Below are positions 4,572 through 41,869 of a stretch of DNA of 64,000 nt, piece by piece. Source of the stretch: a virus. Its lineage: Duplodnaviria; Heunggongvirae; Uroviricota; Caudoviricetes. The stretch spans positions 1 through 64,000 of IMG/VR virus record IMGVR_UViG_3300028581_000022; one strand, written 5' to 3'. Under the pieces are notes generated by a model. The model was not told the DNA's origin, made no database searches, and saw nothing but the letters and a program-made list of their open reading frames with translations. The position numbers were made by a program, and so were the translations under genes. The first letter of the stretch is position 1; each line of letters begins with the position of its first letter.

Positions 4572-4896
4572 TAATAAAATTAAATTTAAAAATATGAAAG
4601 AATTAGTTAAAAAATACGAAAAACTTTATTTCCTTGATGGAATACCAGAAGAAAATAAATTAGAATTATCTCACTTATATGAAGATTTTACTAAATTTTT
4701 AATAAACGTTGATAATTGCGAAGAAAATTTCCAAACATTATTTATACCTATAACTAGAAAATTGTACGTAGAATTTAAGGAAACTGATTTTATTAAAATA
4801 TTTGAAATGTATTCAGAATGGTGTGTTATTTCTAAGTTAGAAAATGATTATGATATATTTAAAGGGTTTATAGAATATTATAAATCGAAGCACTGA
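4561..4896 (+). CDS. hypothetical protein
   Basis: 111-aa ORF overlapping previous by 11 nt (operon-like). Confidence 0.4.
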   Translation: MTYNNKIKFKNMKELVKKYEKLYFLDGIPEENKLELSHLYEDFTKFLINVDNCEENFQTLFIPITRKLYVEFKETDFIKIFEMYSEWCVISKLENDYDIFKGFIEYYKSKH

Positions 4897-4903
4897 TGTA
4901 GTA

Positions 4904-5761
4904 TTGGTGCTAACTATCATATATAAACAAGTATACCCTAAACCCTTTAAAATCAATACTTTGAATCAAAAAATTATAAAGATTTGTGAGCAAAAGTTTA
5001 TATACTTAAACTATTCTCCAAGAACAAAAGATAATTACATAAGTCACATCAAAGACTTTCTTAAATCTTTAGGTGAAAAGCAAATTATTCATTGTAATTC
5101 CAAAAATTTTCAGTCCTACTTGGACAAGTATCAATTTTCCTCTGTTTCTCAACAGAATCAAGTGATAAATGCAATCCGTTTTTTATACAAATACGGGCTT
5201 GATAAAAAATATGATAAAGTCAATTTTAACAGACCAAAATCAGAGAAGAAACTTCCAAGAGTTATTGATGGAGAATTTATCAAAGAAAGATTATCTAAAA
5301 TTGAAAATCTTAAACACAAAGCAATTCTCACACTAACATATTCAGTTGGTTTAAGAGTTTCTGAAATTGTCAATATAAAAATTGAAGATATTGATTCAAA
5401 AAGGATGCTGGTTCATATAAAAAATGCTAAAGGTAGGAAAGATAGAGTGGTCCCATTATCACAAAATGTCCTCAATCTACTGAGAGAATATTTTAAAGAA
5501 TATAGACCAACTGAATATCTATTTAATGGCCAAATGACAAATCAATATTCTGTAAGAAGTTGTCAAGAAATGTATAAAAAATACATTGAATTGTCTGGAC
5601 ATATACATACTCTAAGACATAGTTGTGCCACAAATCTTCTAGAAAATGGAACGGATTTAAAATTAATACAGAAAATTCTAGGGCATTCTAGTGTTAAAAC
5701 TACTGAAATTTATACTCATGTTTCAAATCAAATATTGTCAAAAGTAAATTTACCCATATAA
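4904..5761 (+). CDS. tyrosine recombinase / phage integrase (XerC/D-like), TTG start
   Basis: C-terminal catalytic motifs LRVSE (Arg I), KGRKDRVVPL, HTLRHSCATNLL (H-x-x-R), GHSSVKTTEIYTHV (catalytic Tyr); N-terminal SAM-like domain; first codon is TTG. Confidence 0.85.
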   Translation: MVLTIIYKQVYPKPFKINTLNQKIIKICEQKFIYLNYSPRTKDNYISHIKDFLKSLGEKQIIHCNSKNFQSYLDKYQFSSVSQQNQVINAIRFLYKYGLDKKYDKVNFNRPKSEKKLPRVIDGEFIKERLSKIENLKHKAILTLTYSVGLRVSEIVNIKIEDIDSKRMLVHIKNAKGRKDRVVPLSQNVLNLLREYFKEYRPTEYLFNGQMTNQYSVRSCQEMYKKYIELSGHIHTLRHSCATNLLENGTDLKLIQKILGHSSVKTTEIYTHVSNQILSKVNLPI

Positions 5762-9387: not shown

Positions 9388-9420
9388 ACTTGCAAATTTA
9401 AAAAATTTTATCTACCTTTG
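9388..9420 (+). promoter_or_regulatory. phage promoter upstream of tRNA-like element
   Basis: -7 box TACCTTTG at 9413-9420 with upstream TTGC; no ORF follows on + strand for ~220 nt. Confidence 0.45.
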
Positions 9421-9550
9421 CATTACTAAAATAAATAGGTTGATTGGGGAATGATGCCACACAATTTGGTTTGGTATCGGAGGTGCGTGCTAGTAACGCC
9501 AATCGTAAAAGAGGATGTCCACACGCCCATCTTCCTCTTTCCTAAAACAT

Positions 9551-9622
9551 AGTCAGGTGGTCGATAATGGTAATGGCGATTACGGAAGTAATAGAATACA
9601 AGTTCGAATCTTGTCCTGACTA
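9551..9622 (+). ncRNA. tRNA-like element (canonical T-arm and 7-bp acceptor stem; aberrant D-loop and anticodon arm)
   Basis: AGTCAGG..CCTGACT acceptor pairing, T-arm ACAAG-TTCGAAT-CTTGT, D-stem GTCG/CGAT with 13-nt loop containing duplicated TAATGG; only a 4-nt loop on the ATTAC/GTAAT stem, so not a canonical tRNA. Confidence 0.3.
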
Positions 9623-9641
9623 CTAAACAAAAATAAAAGTT

Positions 9642-13228: not shown

Positions 13229-13246
13229 GTACACATTTGTGTACAT
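13229..13246. promoter_or_regulatory. perfect palindromic operator-like site TGTACAC-ATTT-GTGTACA (copy 1)
   Basis: 7-bp half sites in inverted orientation with 4-bp spacer; identical copy at 13519-13536, near-copy at 27634-27651. Confidence 0.5.
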
Positions 13247-13518: not shown

Positions 13519-13536
13519 TGTACACATTTGTGTACA
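13519..13536. promoter_or_regulatory. palindromic operator-like site TGTACAC-ATTT-GTGTACA (copy 2)
   Basis: identical to 13229-13246. Confidence 0.5.
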
Positions 13537-13974
13537 CAAACCCCACAAAACTGTACCCACATTCGCACGTTTGCTTTTTTTTAAGGCTTTTTGTGTTTTT
13601 TTGGTAAAAAGTGGTAAATTGTGGGAAATTGTGGTGAGATTTCACCTGAAAAATAGGAGATTGATTACCAGAGGGTTATAAACACCATAAAAGTATCATT
13701 TAACATAATCTAAAAAGTAATGAAAAAGTAATGAAAAAACTGCTAAAAGTATTATACCTTTCACAAATTCTCGATGATTTTTCGGCTGAAATTTTTGGGT
13801 ATAGGTGTAGCGTTCCACGTAGAACATTTTTAAAGTACACGTAGAGAAACACGAATAACCCATCATCCTTACGGAGTGGGTGCAACACGACCTTTATTTA
13901 AGGTGTGTTAAATTTTTTTGCGATATGTAATTTTAATTTTTCATAAGGGCATAATATGGGTTAAGTTAGTGAAT

Positions 13975-14010
13975 GCAAAGGTATAAAAGATTTTTGACAT
14001 TACCAAATTT
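13975..14010 (-). promoter_or_regulatory. leftward copy of early promoter
   Basis: reverse complement reads AAATTTGGTAATGTCAAAAATCTTTTATACCTTTGCATT. Confidence 0.5.
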
Positions 14011-14075
14011 ATTTTGGTAAAGTTATCAACAAAGTTATCAACATACCTAATCATATAGATAAAATTTAAGTTAAA

Positions 14076-14112
14076 CCACAAAGGTATGAAAGATTTTTGA
14101 CATTACCAAATT
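14076..14112 (-). promoter_or_regulatory. leftward copy of early promoter
   Basis: reverse complement reads AAATTTGGTAATGTCAAAAATCTTTCATACCTTTGTGG. Confidence 0.5.
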
Positions 14113-14130
14113 TTTAACATTCGTTAACAT

Positions 14131-14200
14131 TTTAAAATAATGCCCAGGTTGGAGTATACCCTCTGCGATATTCTCATATCGAACCCGTCTTATTTAATTT
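14131..14200 (-). ncRNA. candidate small RNA A (homolog of sRNA B at 37337-37405)
   Basis: Transcribed leftward from promoter 14201-14243; on the minus strand it reads AATAAGACG, then hairpin CGATATgagaATATCG, then conserved GGTATACTCCAACCTGG and a U-rich tail; no ORF. Confidence 0.4.
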
Positions 14201-14243
14201 TGACACAGCAAAGATAGGAAAAGAAAATGACATTACCAAATTT
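14201..14243 (-). promoter_or_regulatory. leftward copy of early promoter driving sRNA A
   Basis: reverse complement AAATTTGGTAATGTCATTTTCTTTTCCTATCTTTGCTGTGTCA. Confidence 0.5.
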
Positions 14244-26678: not shown

Positions 26679-26954
26679 ATGGAATTTGTTATTATAGAAA
26701 TAGGTAGTCCTGAATGGGATTATATGTGGAACTGGTTGGCCAGTCATCCATTAAATGAAGGTCTGGAACAGCCAGACGTTGCTTTATATGAAGGTGAAGC
26801 TTGGCAGTATATGGGAAGCTTTAAACAAGGTAATAAGGTGATTCATTCATTCAGACATAGATTTCATCCAGTTACAAATAAAGTAGAACAAATTAGTTTA
26901 TATGCTTCTGATGATTTTGAATTAAGTCAGATAAAAAAATCTTACAAATTGTAA
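26679..26954 (+). CDS. hypothetical protein
   Basis: 91 aa. Confidence 0.4.
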   Translation: MEFVIIEIGSPEWDYMWNWLASHPLNEGLEQPDVALYEGEAWQYMGSFKQGNKVIHSFRHRFHPVTNKVEQISLYASDDFELSQIKKSYKL

Positions 26955-26960
26955 GAAATA

Positions 26961-26996
26961 TATTTGGTGGTTTCAAAAAGTTTTACTACCTTTGCA
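26961..26996 (+). promoter_or_regulatory. early-type promoter driving noncoding RNA 1
   Basis: TATTTGGTGGTTTCAAAAAGTTTTACTACCTTTGCAG; no ORF follows. Confidence 0.5.
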
Positions 26997-27000
26997 GTAC

Positions 27001-27165
27001 GTTCATTGAGAGAGAAACATTAAATCATAAAGTGCCACGACTTGCCGATATTCCGTGAGCAGACTTTATCGGTATGATTTAATTACTTTATAGAGATTCA
27101 CTGGCGATAGCAATAATGCCCAATGATATGCGAGGGAGTAGCCACTCTCTATGAGGTAAAAAAAA
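27001..27165 (+). ncRNA. candidate structured ncRNA 1 (~165 nt)
   Basis: GC-richer than surroundings; nested helices AAUCAUA/UAUGAUU (27022-27028 / 27073-27079) and CCGAUA/UAUCGG; 5' UGAGAGAG can pair 3' CUCUCUAUG; no coding capacity. Confidence 0.4.
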
Positions 27166-27170
27166 GTTTC

Positions 27171-27213
27171 AAAAAGATTTGGTAGTTTCAAAAAGTTTTC
27201 GTACCTTTGTACT
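27171..27213 (+). promoter_or_regulatory. early-type promoter driving noncoding RNA 2
   Basis: AAAAAGATTTGGTAGTTTCAAAAAGTTTTCGTACCTTTGTACT. Confidence 0.5.
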
Positions 27214-27225
27214 ATCGAAGTTAAT

Positions 27226-27628
27226 AGAAGTTCTTTAAAATATTGGTTTGAGTAGGTCGGTTTAATACACCTCTCTCATGTTAATCTCCGTTCAAGATAC
27301 AGCCTCTGTTTGTAGGGGAACTTATGTTCCCCAGCGATGCCGTTCCGTTTTTAGCCATTGACTTGTGCATTTGGTTAGGGATGGCAACTTCCATGCGTAA
27401 CTCTCTGACGAGAACCTCTGTGTACCGTAGCAGTGATTCCACGCTATCTCAACCAATCGGTTCTCTGCCAAGAGGCGTAAGTCGGTGGGAAGGCATCCCA
27501 TTGAGCCAAAAATGAGTGCCGTTGGTTGCAAGGAAATGAGCAACCTTGTAATCAACGGAGCTCACACTCATTATGTAAACAAAGCGGTGCCCAGATTGCT
27601 ATATTGCGGTCTGGGCATTTGCCTTTTG
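27226..27628 (+). ncRNA. candidate structured ncRNA 2 (~400 nt, ~50% GC)
   Basis: GC-rich island in ~30% GC genome; perfect hairpin GGGGAAC-UUAU-GUUCCCC (27313-27330); only short overlapping ORFs on both strands; ends in strong intrinsic terminator. Confidence 0.45.
27589..27628 (+). terminator. intrinsic terminator of ncRNA locus
   Basis: GCCCAGAUUGC-uauauu-GCGGUCUGGGC (11-bp stem, 2 G.U) followed by AUUUGCCUUUUGU. Confidence 0.6.
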
Positions 27629-27633
27629 TAATG

Positions 27634-27651
27634 TGAACACATTTGTGTACA
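27634..27651. promoter_or_regulatory. near-copy of TGTACAC-ATTT-GTGTACA operator-like palindrome
   Basis: TGAACACATTTGTGTACA, one mismatch to sites at 13229 and 13519. Confidence 0.35.
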
Positions 27652-27670
27652 CGACCACAGCCGAGCTGAG

Positions 27671-27982
27671 TTAATCGTTAAGTTGTTGTGGATTTTGTTC
27701 TGATTCTTCAGGTTTTGAAGTAATCTTTTCCTTTTGAATTTGGTTTATGATATAACCTGAAACAGCGAATTCAGCAGCAGCCCATAAAAGGAATTCACCC
27801 ATTGTTAGGGTTGGAAGATGTGTAAGGAAGAAATAAATCATACCCCATTGGGCAATGATGAAAGCTACACCAGATTCTATTCTTTTTTTAGAGAAGAATG
27901 AGTCTTGAGCTGAATAGATTTTACCAATTTCTCTGATAAACCATTTGATGTTTTCCCATCCGAAGAAGTAGTTGTTTTTCAT
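27671..27982 (-). CDS. hypothetical membrane protein
   Basis: 103 aa; hydrophobic segments GVAFIIAQWGMIYFFLTHL and FLLWAAAEFAVSGYII. Confidence 0.45.
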   Translation of the reverse strand: MKNNYFFGWENIKWFIREIGKIYSAQDSFFSKKRIESGVAFIIAQWGMIYFFLTHLPTLTMGEFLLWAAAEFAVSGYIINQIQKEKITSKPEESEQNPQQLND

Positions 27983-38611: not shown

Positions 38612-38650
38612 AAAAATGTTTGTTTTTATGAATAATTTTACTATCTTTGC
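38612..38650 (+). promoter_or_regulatory. last early-type promoter, facing into the island
   Basis: ..AATAATTTTACTATCTTTGCACC. Confidence 0.45.
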
Positions 38651-38668
38651 ACCATGATAATAATATAA

Positions 38669-38730
38669 CCCCCCCCCGTACAGACCCCCCTACGTACCCC
38701 TACCCCGTTACCCCCCTTATATACCCCCCC
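38669..38730. repeat. poly-C tract cluster (C9, C6, C4, C4, C6, C7)
   Basis: AACCCCCCCCCGTACAGACCCCCCTACGTACCCCTACCCCGTTACCCCCCTTATATACCCCCCC in a ~30% GC genome. Confidence 0.7.
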
Positions 38731-38774
38731 GTTGCCATGCTATATAGGGGCCATGATGCTGTAAATAAAATTTT

Positions 38775-38950
38775 TGGGAAATTTTTGAAATTGATTTTTA
38801 ACCACCCCCTTTTTTCAAAAAATTTTTTTCCAGATTTTTTCGGTTTAAATTTTTAACCCCTATTTTTCAAAAAATTTTTTTCCAGATTTTTTCGGTTTAA
38901 ATTTTTAACCCCCTATTTTTCAAAAAATTTTTTTCCAGATTTTTTTTGGA
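38775..38950. repeat. ~52-bp tandem repeat, about 3.4 copies
   Basis: unit AACCCC(C)TATTTTTCAAAAAATTTTTTTCCAGATTTTTTCGGTTTAAATTTTT repeated head-to-tail immediately upstream of ORF 38963. Confidence 0.7.
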
Positions 38951-38962
38951 TATTTATATAAC

Positions 38963-40423: not shown

Positions 40424-40486
40424 GAAAAATATTTGGAGAATTGGAAAAGTTTTTATACCTTTGTGTAAAACATTAAATCATATAGC

Positions 40487-41869
40487 ATGACAAAGTTATT
40501 AACTGAACCAAGGGTTATCAAAGAAATCAAGGAAGTCAAGCCCAAGAAGAGGGTAAAGAAAAAGGCAGATGGTGAGAAGAGTGTTTGTACAAGTCATAAG
40601 GTATTGTATGAATCCAGCAACAATGAGGTAAATGAATTATTTAGGGTTTACAAGGAGAACCGATTAAAGGCTAGGGTGAAGTTTTTCAACAAAGGCAGGG
40701 GTTATTTTTCGTTTAGGCGGCTTGTATTATTTGAATTTGATAATGGTGATTTTGAGGTGTGTAGTTTTACTACTTCTTTTGGGATTAGCACGACCAATAA
40801 AATATATAGTTCTCAGAAGAAGGATGCCAGCATTATATATGTGAAAAATAAATTTTGGGTTAACCAGAACAAGAATTTTCAGCCATTAACATTTGGCAAT
40901 CTAACTATTTTCATCAATAACCATGAGAACATCTATGTTTATGGTGAAAATGATGGCAATATAAAAAAGTCAAAGATTTATGATTATTTTTACAATCGTT
41001 TTCATTGGTTCAAGACCGTTCATGAGAGCAAGGTTTCACGTAGTTTAACATTCAACAAGGTTGTTGAGGATGAGTTATTCAAGTTAAAGGACATGACACG
41101 GCAAGTGCTTGGGGTTCATCACAAGTTGGGCATGATGATTGCTGAGAGCAAGACATTTAAACAAATGGTATCTGAGTCTGGCAAAGGGGTAAAGCATTGG
41201 AAGGAGCTTATGAAGTCATTGGATGGGGTGGACCTTTTGACTGATGAGATGATTAATTCACCTTATTTTTATGATACGTGTAAAATGGCTAGGACTCTTG
41301 GAAGGAAGGTTAATTGCAAATGGGGATTAAAGAGATTAAAGGAGGAGCATGATACATGGGCCAAGGAGATTACTAGGATTATCTTGGAATGTGAGTTGGA
41401 GTATGATTTGAATATACGTCCTATTTACAAGGCTTTTGCTGAGTATTCTGGGTTCAACTTATTATCTACCAACAAAGATATGTTGGCTGAAGGTATGATT
41501 CAGAATCATTGTGTTGGTACGTATATCAACAAGGTTGAGAAGGGGCAGTGTGCTATATATCATGTTGACGGTTATACATTGGAATTATCTCATGTAACTG
41601 AGAGTTTTCAGGTAAAGGAGAGTTATGAGGGTGGAATTCCAACGTATAGGAATGTTGAGAAGAAGGTATTAAAGAATGTTCAGTTTAGGGGAAAATATAA
41701 TGCTGAAGCACCTAAAGAGTTAAATGATAGGGTAAATAAGATGTTGATAGATTTTATGATTAGCAAAGAGATGGAACTGGCTGAAGAGAGTGATAAATTC
41801 TATTTGATTAAATATAATAACAACGTTGTTCAAGTGAATGCGGTTGAGGAGCTTGACAATATATTTTGA
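40487..41869 (+). CDS. large hypothetical protein (possibly PcfJ-like C-terminal region)
   Basis: 460 aa; C-terminal HCVGTYINKVEKGQCAIYHV; from memory only, low confidence. Confidence 0.4.
   Translation: MTKLLTEPRVIKEIKEVKPKKRVKKKADGEKSVCTSHKVLYESSNNEVNELFRVYKENRLKARVKFFNKGRGYFSFRRLVLFEFDNGDFEVCSFTTSFGISTTNKIYSSQKKDASIIYVKNKFWVNQNKNFQPLTFGNLTIFINNHENIYVYGENDGNIKKSKIYDYFYNRFHWFKTVHESKVSRSLTFNKVVEDELFKLKDMTRQVLGVHHKLGMMIAESKTFKQMVSESGKGVKHWKELMKSLDGVDLLTDEMINSPYFYDTCKMARTLGRKVNCKWGLKRLKEEHDTWAKEITRIILECELEYDLNIRPIYKAFAEYSGFNLLSTNKDMLAEGMIQNHCVGTYINKVEKGQCAIYHVDGYTLELSHVTESFQVKESYEGGIPTYRNVEKKVLKNVQFRGKYNAEAPKELNDRVNKMLIDFMISKEMELAEESDKFYLIKYNNNVVQVNAVEELDNIF

Follow-up and report, generated by a model that had tools for sequence, protein, structure and literature searches.

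The window, a 64,000-nucleotide (nt) stretch of a Caudoviricetes virus (positions 1–64,000 of IMG/VR record IMGVR_UViG_3300028581_000022), contains a locus rich in guanine and cytosine (GC) at positions 26961–27630, from which two promoter-driven units, RNA1 and RNA2, are predicted to be transcribed. RNA2, the larger unit, is very probably a functional structured noncoding RNA (ncRNA), and it is best read as a putative new, narrowly distributed phage ncRNA family that is absent from Rfam 15. At the level of sequence, the locus closes, at its 3′ end, a predicted array of stable-RNA genes of the phage. RNA1 is best seen as one unit of that array of transfer RNA (tRNA) and tRNA-like genes, rather than as an independent 165-nt structured RNA.

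Structure and conservation of RNA2

Relatives were collected by three routes: loci encoding the flanking 91- and 103-amino acid (aa) proteins, exact-pattern scans for the conserved core of RNA2, and contigs on which a close homolog of the 103-aa protein is encoded. The locus was recovered in about 17 distinct versions (designated below by L numbers), all on viral or metagenome contigs from freshwater. In every version, RNA2 has a tRNA-type array on one side and the 3′ end of the convergent 103-aa gene on the other, and the promoters and terminator bracket the RNAs exactly. RNA2 is 311–457 nt long from the predicted start to the terminator, L076 having the shortest version (311 nt). Its elements in the window are as follows.

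27214..27629, + strand: RNA2, structured noncoding RNA of about 415 nt
27217..27233, + strand: P1 (helix 1), 5′ hairpin GAAGUU-N5-AAGUUC, followed by the conserved linker UUUAAAAU; 88% paired
27242..27255, + strand: 5′ strand of P2 (helix 2), AUUGGUU-U-GAG-UAG, pairing with 27444–27457 to close the middle domain
27256..27443, + strand: middle domain, variable and dispensable, about 190 nt, including a perfect hairpin at 27315–27332
27444..27457, + strand: 3′ strand of P2, CUA-U-CUC-AACCAAU
27455..27507, + strand: core, AAUCGGUUC-P3-CGUAAG-P4-GCC, 53 nt, nearly invariant
27462–27475, + strand: P3, UCUCU-GCCA-AGAGG; the middle pair covaries (U-A, U-G, C-G)
27482–27504, + strand: P4, UCGGUGGGA-AGGCA-UCCCAUUGA, with two invariant G-U pairs
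27512..27571, + strand: 3′ domain, P5 (6–7 base pairs (bp), AUGAGUG/CACUCAU) enclosing the long hairpin P5a
27586..27629, + strand: intrinsic terminator, 14-pair stem (27586–27619), then TGCCTTTTGT; the U-tract portion is also listed as UUUGCCUUUUGU

The + strand at positions 27214–27632 is predicted to fold with −147.7 kcal/mol; relative to dinucleotide shuffles, z is −5.6 for this strand and −3.7 for the minus strand. The structure consisting of P1, P2, P3, P4, P5, P5a and the terminator was written from the window sequence and tested on an alignment of 12 sequences. The proposed pairs are formed in 87.9% of the alignment cells, compared with 36–50% when the 3′ partners are slid by 1–3 columns, a control that retains the relatedness of the sequences. 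Twenty-one pairs are changed on both sides; shuffles give 12.0 ± 1.9 such pairs, and none of 500 attains 21. The covariation score is 0.217, against 0.105 in shuffles. The G-U pairs should also be considered here, since the two invariant ones in P4 and the U-G intermediates in P3, P5a and the terminator fit the + strand only. An earlier prediction made from the window sequence alone, which had regarded the larger RNA as structured and had pointed to comparative alignment as a check, is thus supported by the fold, by the compensatory and G-U changes in the relatives and by the two-sided changes among the 12 sequences.

These comparisons show RNA2 to be modular, with interchangeable domains flanking a nearly invariant core of 53 nt that is predicted to form two hairpins. 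P1 is replaced by a perfect 7-bp hairpin in L006. P2 is 90% paired with three pairs changed on both sides, and it is kept by different sequences in three lineages, reading GGUUCGAUAA/UUAUCAACC in L076 and AUUGGUUUGAGUAG/CUACUC-UCU-AAACCAAU in L110. L076 has no middle domain, and that of L006 is different. The perfect hairpin that the original prediction had picked out in this domain, GGGGAAC-UUAU-GUUCCCC, is present in the window; its arms GGGGAAC/GUUCCCC become GGGAAAC/GUUUCCC in L101, a compensatory change, and a longer hairpin occupies the site in L108. Contrarily, the core differs at only three positions between the window and L006, while the remaining RNA2 sequence of the two is too diverged to align.

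In the 3′ domain, P5 and P5a covary, with 11 of the 15 P5a pairs changed on both sides. The apical loop of P5a carries UGAGC (27537–27541), and a bulge, AGCUCA (27559–27564), sits between P5a and the 3′ strand of P5. All five lineages with unrelated P5a stems keep the UUGAGC loop and a (A/G)GCUC(A/U) bulge directly before the 3′ strand of P5, and the length of the P5/P5a module is constant (92–97 nt, with 16–19 nt in each arm of the stem). Each RNA2 contains UGAGC twice (core and loop) at a distance of 32–36 nt, and the complement GCUC once, 21–24 nt further on. It is possible that UGAGC and GCUCA pair between molecules, or that they bind a common partner. A pseudoknot within one molecule between the UGAGC of the core and the GCUCA bulge was judged sterically implausible, since a 3-nt linker would have to span about 11 bp (L110, L126). 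Reading P4 with GCCA as a mimic of a tRNA minihelix with its CCA end was also rejected, as L126 reads GAGCCGUAU there.

The distribution of RNA2 is narrow. In the exact-pattern scans, the core is carried by two IMG/VR contigs and three JGI metagenome contigs; the remaining matches in IMG/VR to a 16-mer and to a gapped pattern of the core are chance. None of the 185,579 species genomes in GTDB contains the core by the same kind of scan, so no host source or mimic of it is evident. Among GenBank phages, the sole blastn match is to 54 nt of the promoter region, in an uncultured phage of 635 kb. The nearest GenBank phages by protein, LR756502.1 and LR745206.1 (uncultured, 634–642 kb), have no RNA2 at the syntenic site.

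Rfam 15 and ARAGORN were applied to the window and related loci (nine related loci for Rfam). A search against Rfam had been proposed in the original prediction, and across the whole window it gives no family match at gathering thresholds. For the 1-kb locus at 26800–27800 with E ≤ 10, there are five chance matches, none of them to GOLLD or ROOL. Four other divergent versions of RNA2 give no family match either, and only tRNAs are found across the nine related loci.

Transcription signals and coding potential

The following elements frame the two units.

26963..26994, + strand: RNA1 promoter, Bacteroidetes sigma-A type, −33 TTTGG, 19-nt spacer, −7 TACCTTTG
27178..27209, + strand: RNA2 promoter, TTTGG-N19-TACCTTTG, kept in all RNA2 homologs
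27637..27652, no strand: palindrome ACACATTTGTGTACAC, flanked by the RNA2 terminator and the convergent gene's stop codon
27671–27982, − strand: convergent 103-aa gene, directly beyond the RNA2 terminator and the palindrome

Bacteroidetes promoters have the consensus TTTG/TAnnTTTG. Both predicted promoters contain TTTG at −33 and TAnnTTTG at −7, within the expected distance of about 19–21 nt, and as TTTGG-N19-TACCTTTG they are identical to each other at 30 of 33 positions. The RNA1 promoter is kept upstream of every homologous unit. Judging from these elements, transcription would start at about 26999 for RNA1 and about 27214 for RNA2. The window contains about 55 near-consensus promoters of this type (AAATTTGG..N..TTATCTTTGCAGTA), roughly one per small gene. 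Nearly all the others are followed within 60 nt, typically at 15–40 nt, by an open reading frame (ORF) of at least 35 aa starting with ATG; those of RNA1 and RNA2 are among the few that have no such ORF within that distance. Two promoter copies without a plausible gene had been noticed from the outset, and both are found, with their coordinates corrected to 26963–26994 and 27178–27209. A tandem duplication of 19 nt at 27166–27199 (GTTTCAAAAAGATTTGGTA / GTTTCAAAAAGTTTTCGTA; beginning with GTTTCAAAAAG) overlaps the 5′ part of the RNA2 promoter. Copy 1 contains the −33 element and copy 2 forms most of the spacer, resulting in a second, out-of-register −33-like element.

The GC content of the locus had been described as about 50% in an AT-rich genome. 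Positions 27316–27615 are the 300 nt richest in GC in the window (49.3% versus a mean of 30.8%, z = 4.2), in agreement with that description. The strong terminator said to end the locus is also found, with a longer extent (27586–27629) and a stem of 14 pairs; a GC-rich hairpin directly precedes the U-tract at the end of RNA2. Seven terminator-like sites occur in the surrounding 4-kb region, where 1.9 ± 1.6 are expected. The relatives have hairpins of unrelated sequence with U-tracts at the position of the RNA2 terminator, and compensatory changes are found in its stem (helices 7 and 8 of the 12-sequence alignment). Since the minus strand also reads as a hairpin with a T-rich run, this terminator probably ends the convergent 103-aa gene as well.

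The palindrome, TGTACAC-AAA/TTT-GTGTACA, is kept in all the homologous RNA2 loci and in L004 (about 4795–4815), and two further copies are found in the window at 13231–13245 and 13522–13537. Possible roles are those of an operator, a roadblock site or a specialised signal for the end of the array. The neighbouring proteins of 91, 103, 85, 90, 92 and 56 aa have no function assigned by Pfam or PHROG, and no Pfam family across the rest of the window is related to translation.

The locus had been called noncoding, with only short overlapping ORFs on both strands. The ORFs indeed overlap on the two strands and do not exceed 77 aa. That the locus encodes one or more small proteins, such as the product of the 63-aa ORF at 27324–27515 or a peptide (...RKSVGRHPIEPK...) across the core, is extremely improbable and already largely refuted by the sequences of the relatives. 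ORFs of 40–77 aa do exist on both strands, and the core gives the same peptide in the relatives, but the latter follows from the invariance of the DNA itself. The frame is not conserved among homologs: the 63-aa ORF suffers several 1–2-nt indels and in-frame stops in close relatives, its substitutions are spread over the codon positions (8:7:13), and the frame left open through the core varies from one relative to another. In L110 and L113, no ORF on the + strand reaches 40 aa. About 50 promoters nearby have an ATG within 60 nt downstream, but these two do not, and in independently made annotations of metagenomes the gene callers placed no gene in the gap.

RNA1 and the array of tRNA and tRNA-like genes

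The array units upstream of RNA2 share one build, consisting of a promoter, a leader beginning with ACGTTCATTGA(R)AG, a body and an A-run. In the window, RNA1 is divided as follows.

26999..27018, + strand: shared 5′ leader ACGTTCATTGAGAGAGAAAC, ACGTTCATTGA with a purine-rich tail
27019..27083, + strand: RNA1 body, 65-nt hairpin closed by an 11-bp stem (AUUAAAUCAUA/UAUGAUUUAAU) around two inner hairpins
27084–27157, + strand: variable 3′ extension of RNA1, a 74-nt insertion present only in the window and L002
27158–27166, + strand: A-run that closes the unit, as at the end of each unit

Across the relatives, the same leader precedes tRNA-Met (L114, L110), the tRNA-like RNAs (L107, L110, L006) and the RNA1 hairpin. 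The 65-nt hairpin is found in the window and six relatives, and it is nearly invariant in the window, L002, L076, L078, L101 and L107. The sole substitution in the stem, A to G, gives a U-G pair on the + strand and an A-C mismatch on the minus strand. The loops of the two inner hairpins could kiss via CACG/CGUG. In L078, L101 and L076, the hairpin is directly followed by a U-tract and the A-run, and L107 has a different insertion.

The slot of RNA1 is occupied by a genuine tRNA-Met in L114, L110 and L006 (74.9 and 66.3 bits with the Rfam tRNA model). tRNA-like RNAs of L118, L107 and L110 also pass the Rfam tRNA threshold (48.9, 38.0, 37.4 and 29.7 bits versus 29). These have class-II acceptor, D and T arms, with inserts of 39–44 nt or deletions replacing the anticodon arm, and an acceptor/T-arm RNA read from the sequence of L006 carries a 95-nt insert. 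They look like tRNA scaffolds with variable payloads. Each of these genes, listed below, has its own promoter and the shared leader.

L107 4097–4205, − strand: tRNA-like gene
L118 2551–2658, − strand: tRNA-like gene
L110 3832–3913 and 3995–4062, − strand: two tRNA-like genes
L006 about 4850–5010, − strand: tRNA-like gene

Genes for tRNA-Met or tRNA-like RNAs lie directly upstream of RNA2 in L006, L107, L110, L114 and L118. By contrast, RNA1 of the window has no T-loop and no anticodon arm, and neither the tRNA covariance model (26800–27800, even at E ≤ 10) nor ARAGORN detects a tRNA there. The original prediction had taken RNA1 for a structured RNA of about 165 nt. The part of this that stands is a noncoding, promoter-driven unit; its conserved portion is only the 65-nt hairpin, and the fold as a whole is not significant (z = −1.6). 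That it is a unit of the array is suggested by the slot, promoter, leader and A-run that it shares with the tRNA and tRNA-like units of the relatives, and by the restriction of the 74-nt extension to the window and L002.

Pairing between the units was also considered. RNA1 and RNA2 pair no better than shuffles by duplexfold. A 9-bp candidate between them, GCCACGACUU/AAGUCGGUGG, reaches only −9.4 kcal/mol and is absent where tRNAs replace RNA1. Pairing of the leader with RNA2 (CUCUCUCAUG) shows no covariation and is absent in L076. The complement of the leader, TCAATGAACG, finds in the window no partner other than those expected by chance, and a scan with a 14-mer of the leader gave more than 117 matches, none in a promoter context, so that all are regarded as chance.

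A 15-nt sequence of RNA1, GAAACATTAAATCAT (27015–27029; the end of the leader and the 5′ arm of the hairpin), recurs without change at 40468–40482. This repeat is in the 5′ leader of a 460-aa PcfJ-like gene (40487–41869), 5 nt before its ATG and just downstream of the promoter of that gene. To the leader of the gene, the 3′ arm of RNA1 would be antisense, though the repeat may be due to chance (BLAST E = 0.035 within the window).

Three other sites in the window should be mentioned. At 9395–9625, a promoter-like site is followed by about 130 nt of GC-rich leader and then by a tRNA-like gene (9551–9623; AGUCAGG...CCUGACUAC), which belongs to the tRNA-like family adjoining RNA2 in related phages. 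It is the sole ARAGORN call in the window (‘tRNA-???’ with a 2-nt anticodon) and is below the Rfam tRNA threshold. At 13560–14240 on the minus strand, three tandem promoters (14240–14209, 14110–14079 and 14007–13976) have no ORF start nearby and are followed by about 450 nt of noncoding sequence ending at the palindrome at 13537–13522; this region may be a second ncRNA array, or a regulatory or attachment region near an integrase gene. At 38619–38960, a very C-rich stretch (aacccccccccgtacagacccccctacg...) comes after a promoter that has no ORF start nearby; three direct repeats follow, each about 52 bp long and including TTTTCAAAAAATTTTTTTCCAGATTTTTT.

Possible roles of RNA2 and comparison with known RNAs

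The elements described above can be combined into a proposed mechanism. The RNA1 and RNA2 units would be transcribed by the host RNA polymerase, since the promoters match the host consensus. Read-through from the upstream array units, which have no terminators of their own, would stop at the RNA2 terminator. RNA2 would work as RNA and not via a peptide, and its scaffold would display the invariant motifs, single-stranded or in loops, for binding by a conserved partner. This could be a second copy of RNA2, held by pairing of UGAGC with GCUCA, or a factor of the phage or the host that is connected with tRNA or translation. Taken as one statement, a functional structured ncRNA of the stable-RNA array with such a scaffold or partner-binding mechanism is somewhat favoured; the scaffold or partner-binding mechanism by itself is tentative. 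A more specific form, in which RNA2 is a third class of self-assembling phage RNA beside ROOL and GOLLD, is improbable. In that form, the UUGAGC loop of one molecule would pair with the GCUCA bulge of another, the UUGAGC of the core would give a further contact, and the resulting dimers or closed oligomers would hold or organise the co-transcribed tRNA-like RNAs.

Several points weigh against reading RNA2 in this way. The shuffle control overstates the significance of the two-sided changes because the aligned sequences are related. The core is invariant, and except for one pair in P3, its two hairpins are therefore without covariation support. The transcription start, the 3′ end and the stability of the RNA are deduced from sequence. 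RNA1 alone (26998–27165) lacks significant folding, as described above, and has almost no sequence variation to test. The family is narrow, being confined to one lineage of uncultured freshwater phages (the five core-bearing contigs given above). The complementarity of UGAGC and GCUCA could be coincidental or a motif at the DNA level, and the step of partner binding or self-association is purely inferential.

Among the other explanations, the one closest to the proposed mechanism is a specific version of its partner-binding step, in which RNA2 and RNA1 are decoys or regulators of host tRNA biology or of a tRNA-targeting defence, mimicking or capturing parts of tRNAs. GCUCA corresponds to tRNA nucleotides 10–14 and UGAGC to the complement of the D-stem, the array holds tRNA-Met and many aberrant tRNA-like RNAs, and the bulge UAGCUCA in L118 and L126 equals positions 8–14 of the phage tRNA-Met. 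However, an identity of 5 nt is weak evidence, the D-stems of folded tRNAs are unavailable for pairing, and no defence or tRNA-modifying gene adjoins the locus, the functions of the neighbours being unassigned by Pfam and PHROG; this version is unlikely. Catalysis by RNA2, for example in processing the leader-bearing tRNA-like precursors of the array, is quite improbable. An invariant core amid variable peripheral helices is seen in many ribozymes, RNA2 is always linked to RNAs with a common 5′ leader needing removal, and the window contains the hammerhead-like CUGACGAG; in the hammerhead and other self-cleaving ribozymes, the catalytic core (CUGANGA...GAAA) is conserved in all members. Against this, no Rfam ribozyme family matches, and CUGACGAG reads CUGACCAG or CCGAGUUA in relatives, being conserved in neither L101 nor L110. 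No conserved complementarity is found between the leader and the invariant parts of RNA2, and the leaders of L110 and L076 change without matching changes in RNA2. The ribozyme offered as one option in the original prediction thus finds nothing in its support.

RNA2 could instead be a highly diverged member of a known family (GOLLD, ROOL, transfer-messenger RNA (tmRNA), ribonuclease (RNase) P RNA, group I intron, 6S RNA or Y RNA) missed by the covariance models, which is very doubtful. Phage tRNA islands do host GOLLD, ROOL and phage tmRNAs, and RNA2 combines conserved and variable parts, as in GOLLD. The Rfam searches of the window, the locus and the four divergent versions nevertheless gave no match beyond chance, and RNA2 is smaller than ROOL and GOLLD. 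For tmRNA, which has tRNA-like ends and a tag frame, ARAGORN is negative on the window and the homologous loci, as is Rfam, and RNA2 has no T-arm or acceptor ends. For RNase P RNA, which has a conserved P4 helix and the regions CR-I to CR-V, no model matches, the nearest hit being RNase_MRP with 8.6 bits versus a threshold of 50. The core string GUAAGUCGG loosely resembles the CR-I motif of RNase P, GAAAGUCCGG, but no 3′ strand able to pair with GUAAGUCGG into an RNase P-type P4 can be read from the sequence. A likeness of the core to segments of 16S/23S ribosomal RNA (rRNA), noted by eye only, was dropped, as the Rfam rRNA models gave nothing. Finally, the GC-rich stretch might be an element at the DNA level (an origin, a packaging or a recombination site) or decaying acquired DNA, with incidental RNA features. 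Domains are swapped among the relatives as if by recombination, the conserved palindrome adjoins the locus and recurs elsewhere in the window, and TGAGC/GCTCA can be read as inverted DNA repeats. This explanation is highly improbable, since the G-U-compatible helix changes make sense only in a + strand RNA and a promoter and a terminator frame the element precisely in every relative. Moreover, a decaying remnant would not hold 53 nt nearly invariant amid unalignable flanks, and the genome scan gave no cellular source of the core.

The reading of RNA2 as a structured ncRNA of a stable-RNA array bears on a wider observation, that large RNAs with elaborate folds (ROOL, GOLLD) recur in phage tRNA islands. 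RNA2 would be an independent example, smaller and of unrelated sequence, in Bacteroidetes-type phages and at the end of a tRNA-like array, and as such it strengthens the idea that these RNAs act together with phage tRNAs. It is also more tractable, with a natural minimal version of 311 nt (L076), a 53-nt core and complementary motifs to mutate. The array itself is unusual: each unit comes with a promoter of its own and the common leader, and there are tRNA-like scaffolds bearing inserts of 39–44 nt. The narrow distribution of the family limits its general importance. If RNA2 self-assembles or acts on tRNAs, it is highly interesting; otherwise it is moderately so, for specialists in RNA and phages.

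ROOL and GOLLD are phage RNAs described as ‘often near tRNA islands’; in GOLLD, the 3′ region is conserved and the 5′ region variable, and GOLLD env-38 is downstream of a tRNA-Met (PMC12286853). RNA2 resembles ROOL (RF03087) and GOLLD (RF01998), which occur in phages and prophages, in being phage-encoded, large for a bacterial ncRNA, independent of a protein gene and located at or near a tRNA island. In addition, RNA2 shares with GOLLD the combination of a conserved part and a variable part, but the conserved part of RNA2 is a short central core and not the 3′ half. RNA2 matches neither Rfam model in sequence or structure, its length of 311–457 nt is below that of ROOL (about 580 nt) and GOLLD (about 800 nt and above), and it occurs in Bacteroidetes-type phages from freshwater metagenomes. 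The membership in a GOLLD/ROOL class suggested in the original prediction is therefore reduced to a likeness of context. GOLLD and ROOL form homo-oligomeric cages of RNA only, of which the sole hint in RNA2 is the complementary UGAGC/GCUCA that is hard to pair within one molecule.

The loop-receptor principle of tectoRNA design yields self-assembling RNAs. The UUGAGC loop of the P5/P5a module and its complementary GCUCA bulge, at near-constant spacing, are similar in that their geometry permits dimers via two reciprocal contacts. This likeness is purely geometric, and the contacts of RNA2 would be Watson–Crick pairs and not tetraloop-receptor contacts.

RNA1 can be compared with tRNA (RF00005) and with tRNA-like scaffolds such as the tRNA-like domain of tmRNA and the YrlA-type Y RNAs, since it holds a tRNA slot with the same promoter, leader and A-run. 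It may be drawn as an acceptor-like stem with two hairpins whose loops could pair, like the D/T elbow, though the window RNA1 differs from tRNA in the missing arms and in escaping detection as described above. Phage tRNA clusters also contain small stable RNAs, as in the tRNA region of T4 with its species 1 and 2 RNAs. The present array is similar to such clusters in that stable non-tRNA RNAs are embedded in it, presumably to be released by the tRNA-processing machinery, and differs from them in the promoter and shared leader of each unit, the many aberrant tRNA-like units and the far larger RNA at its end.

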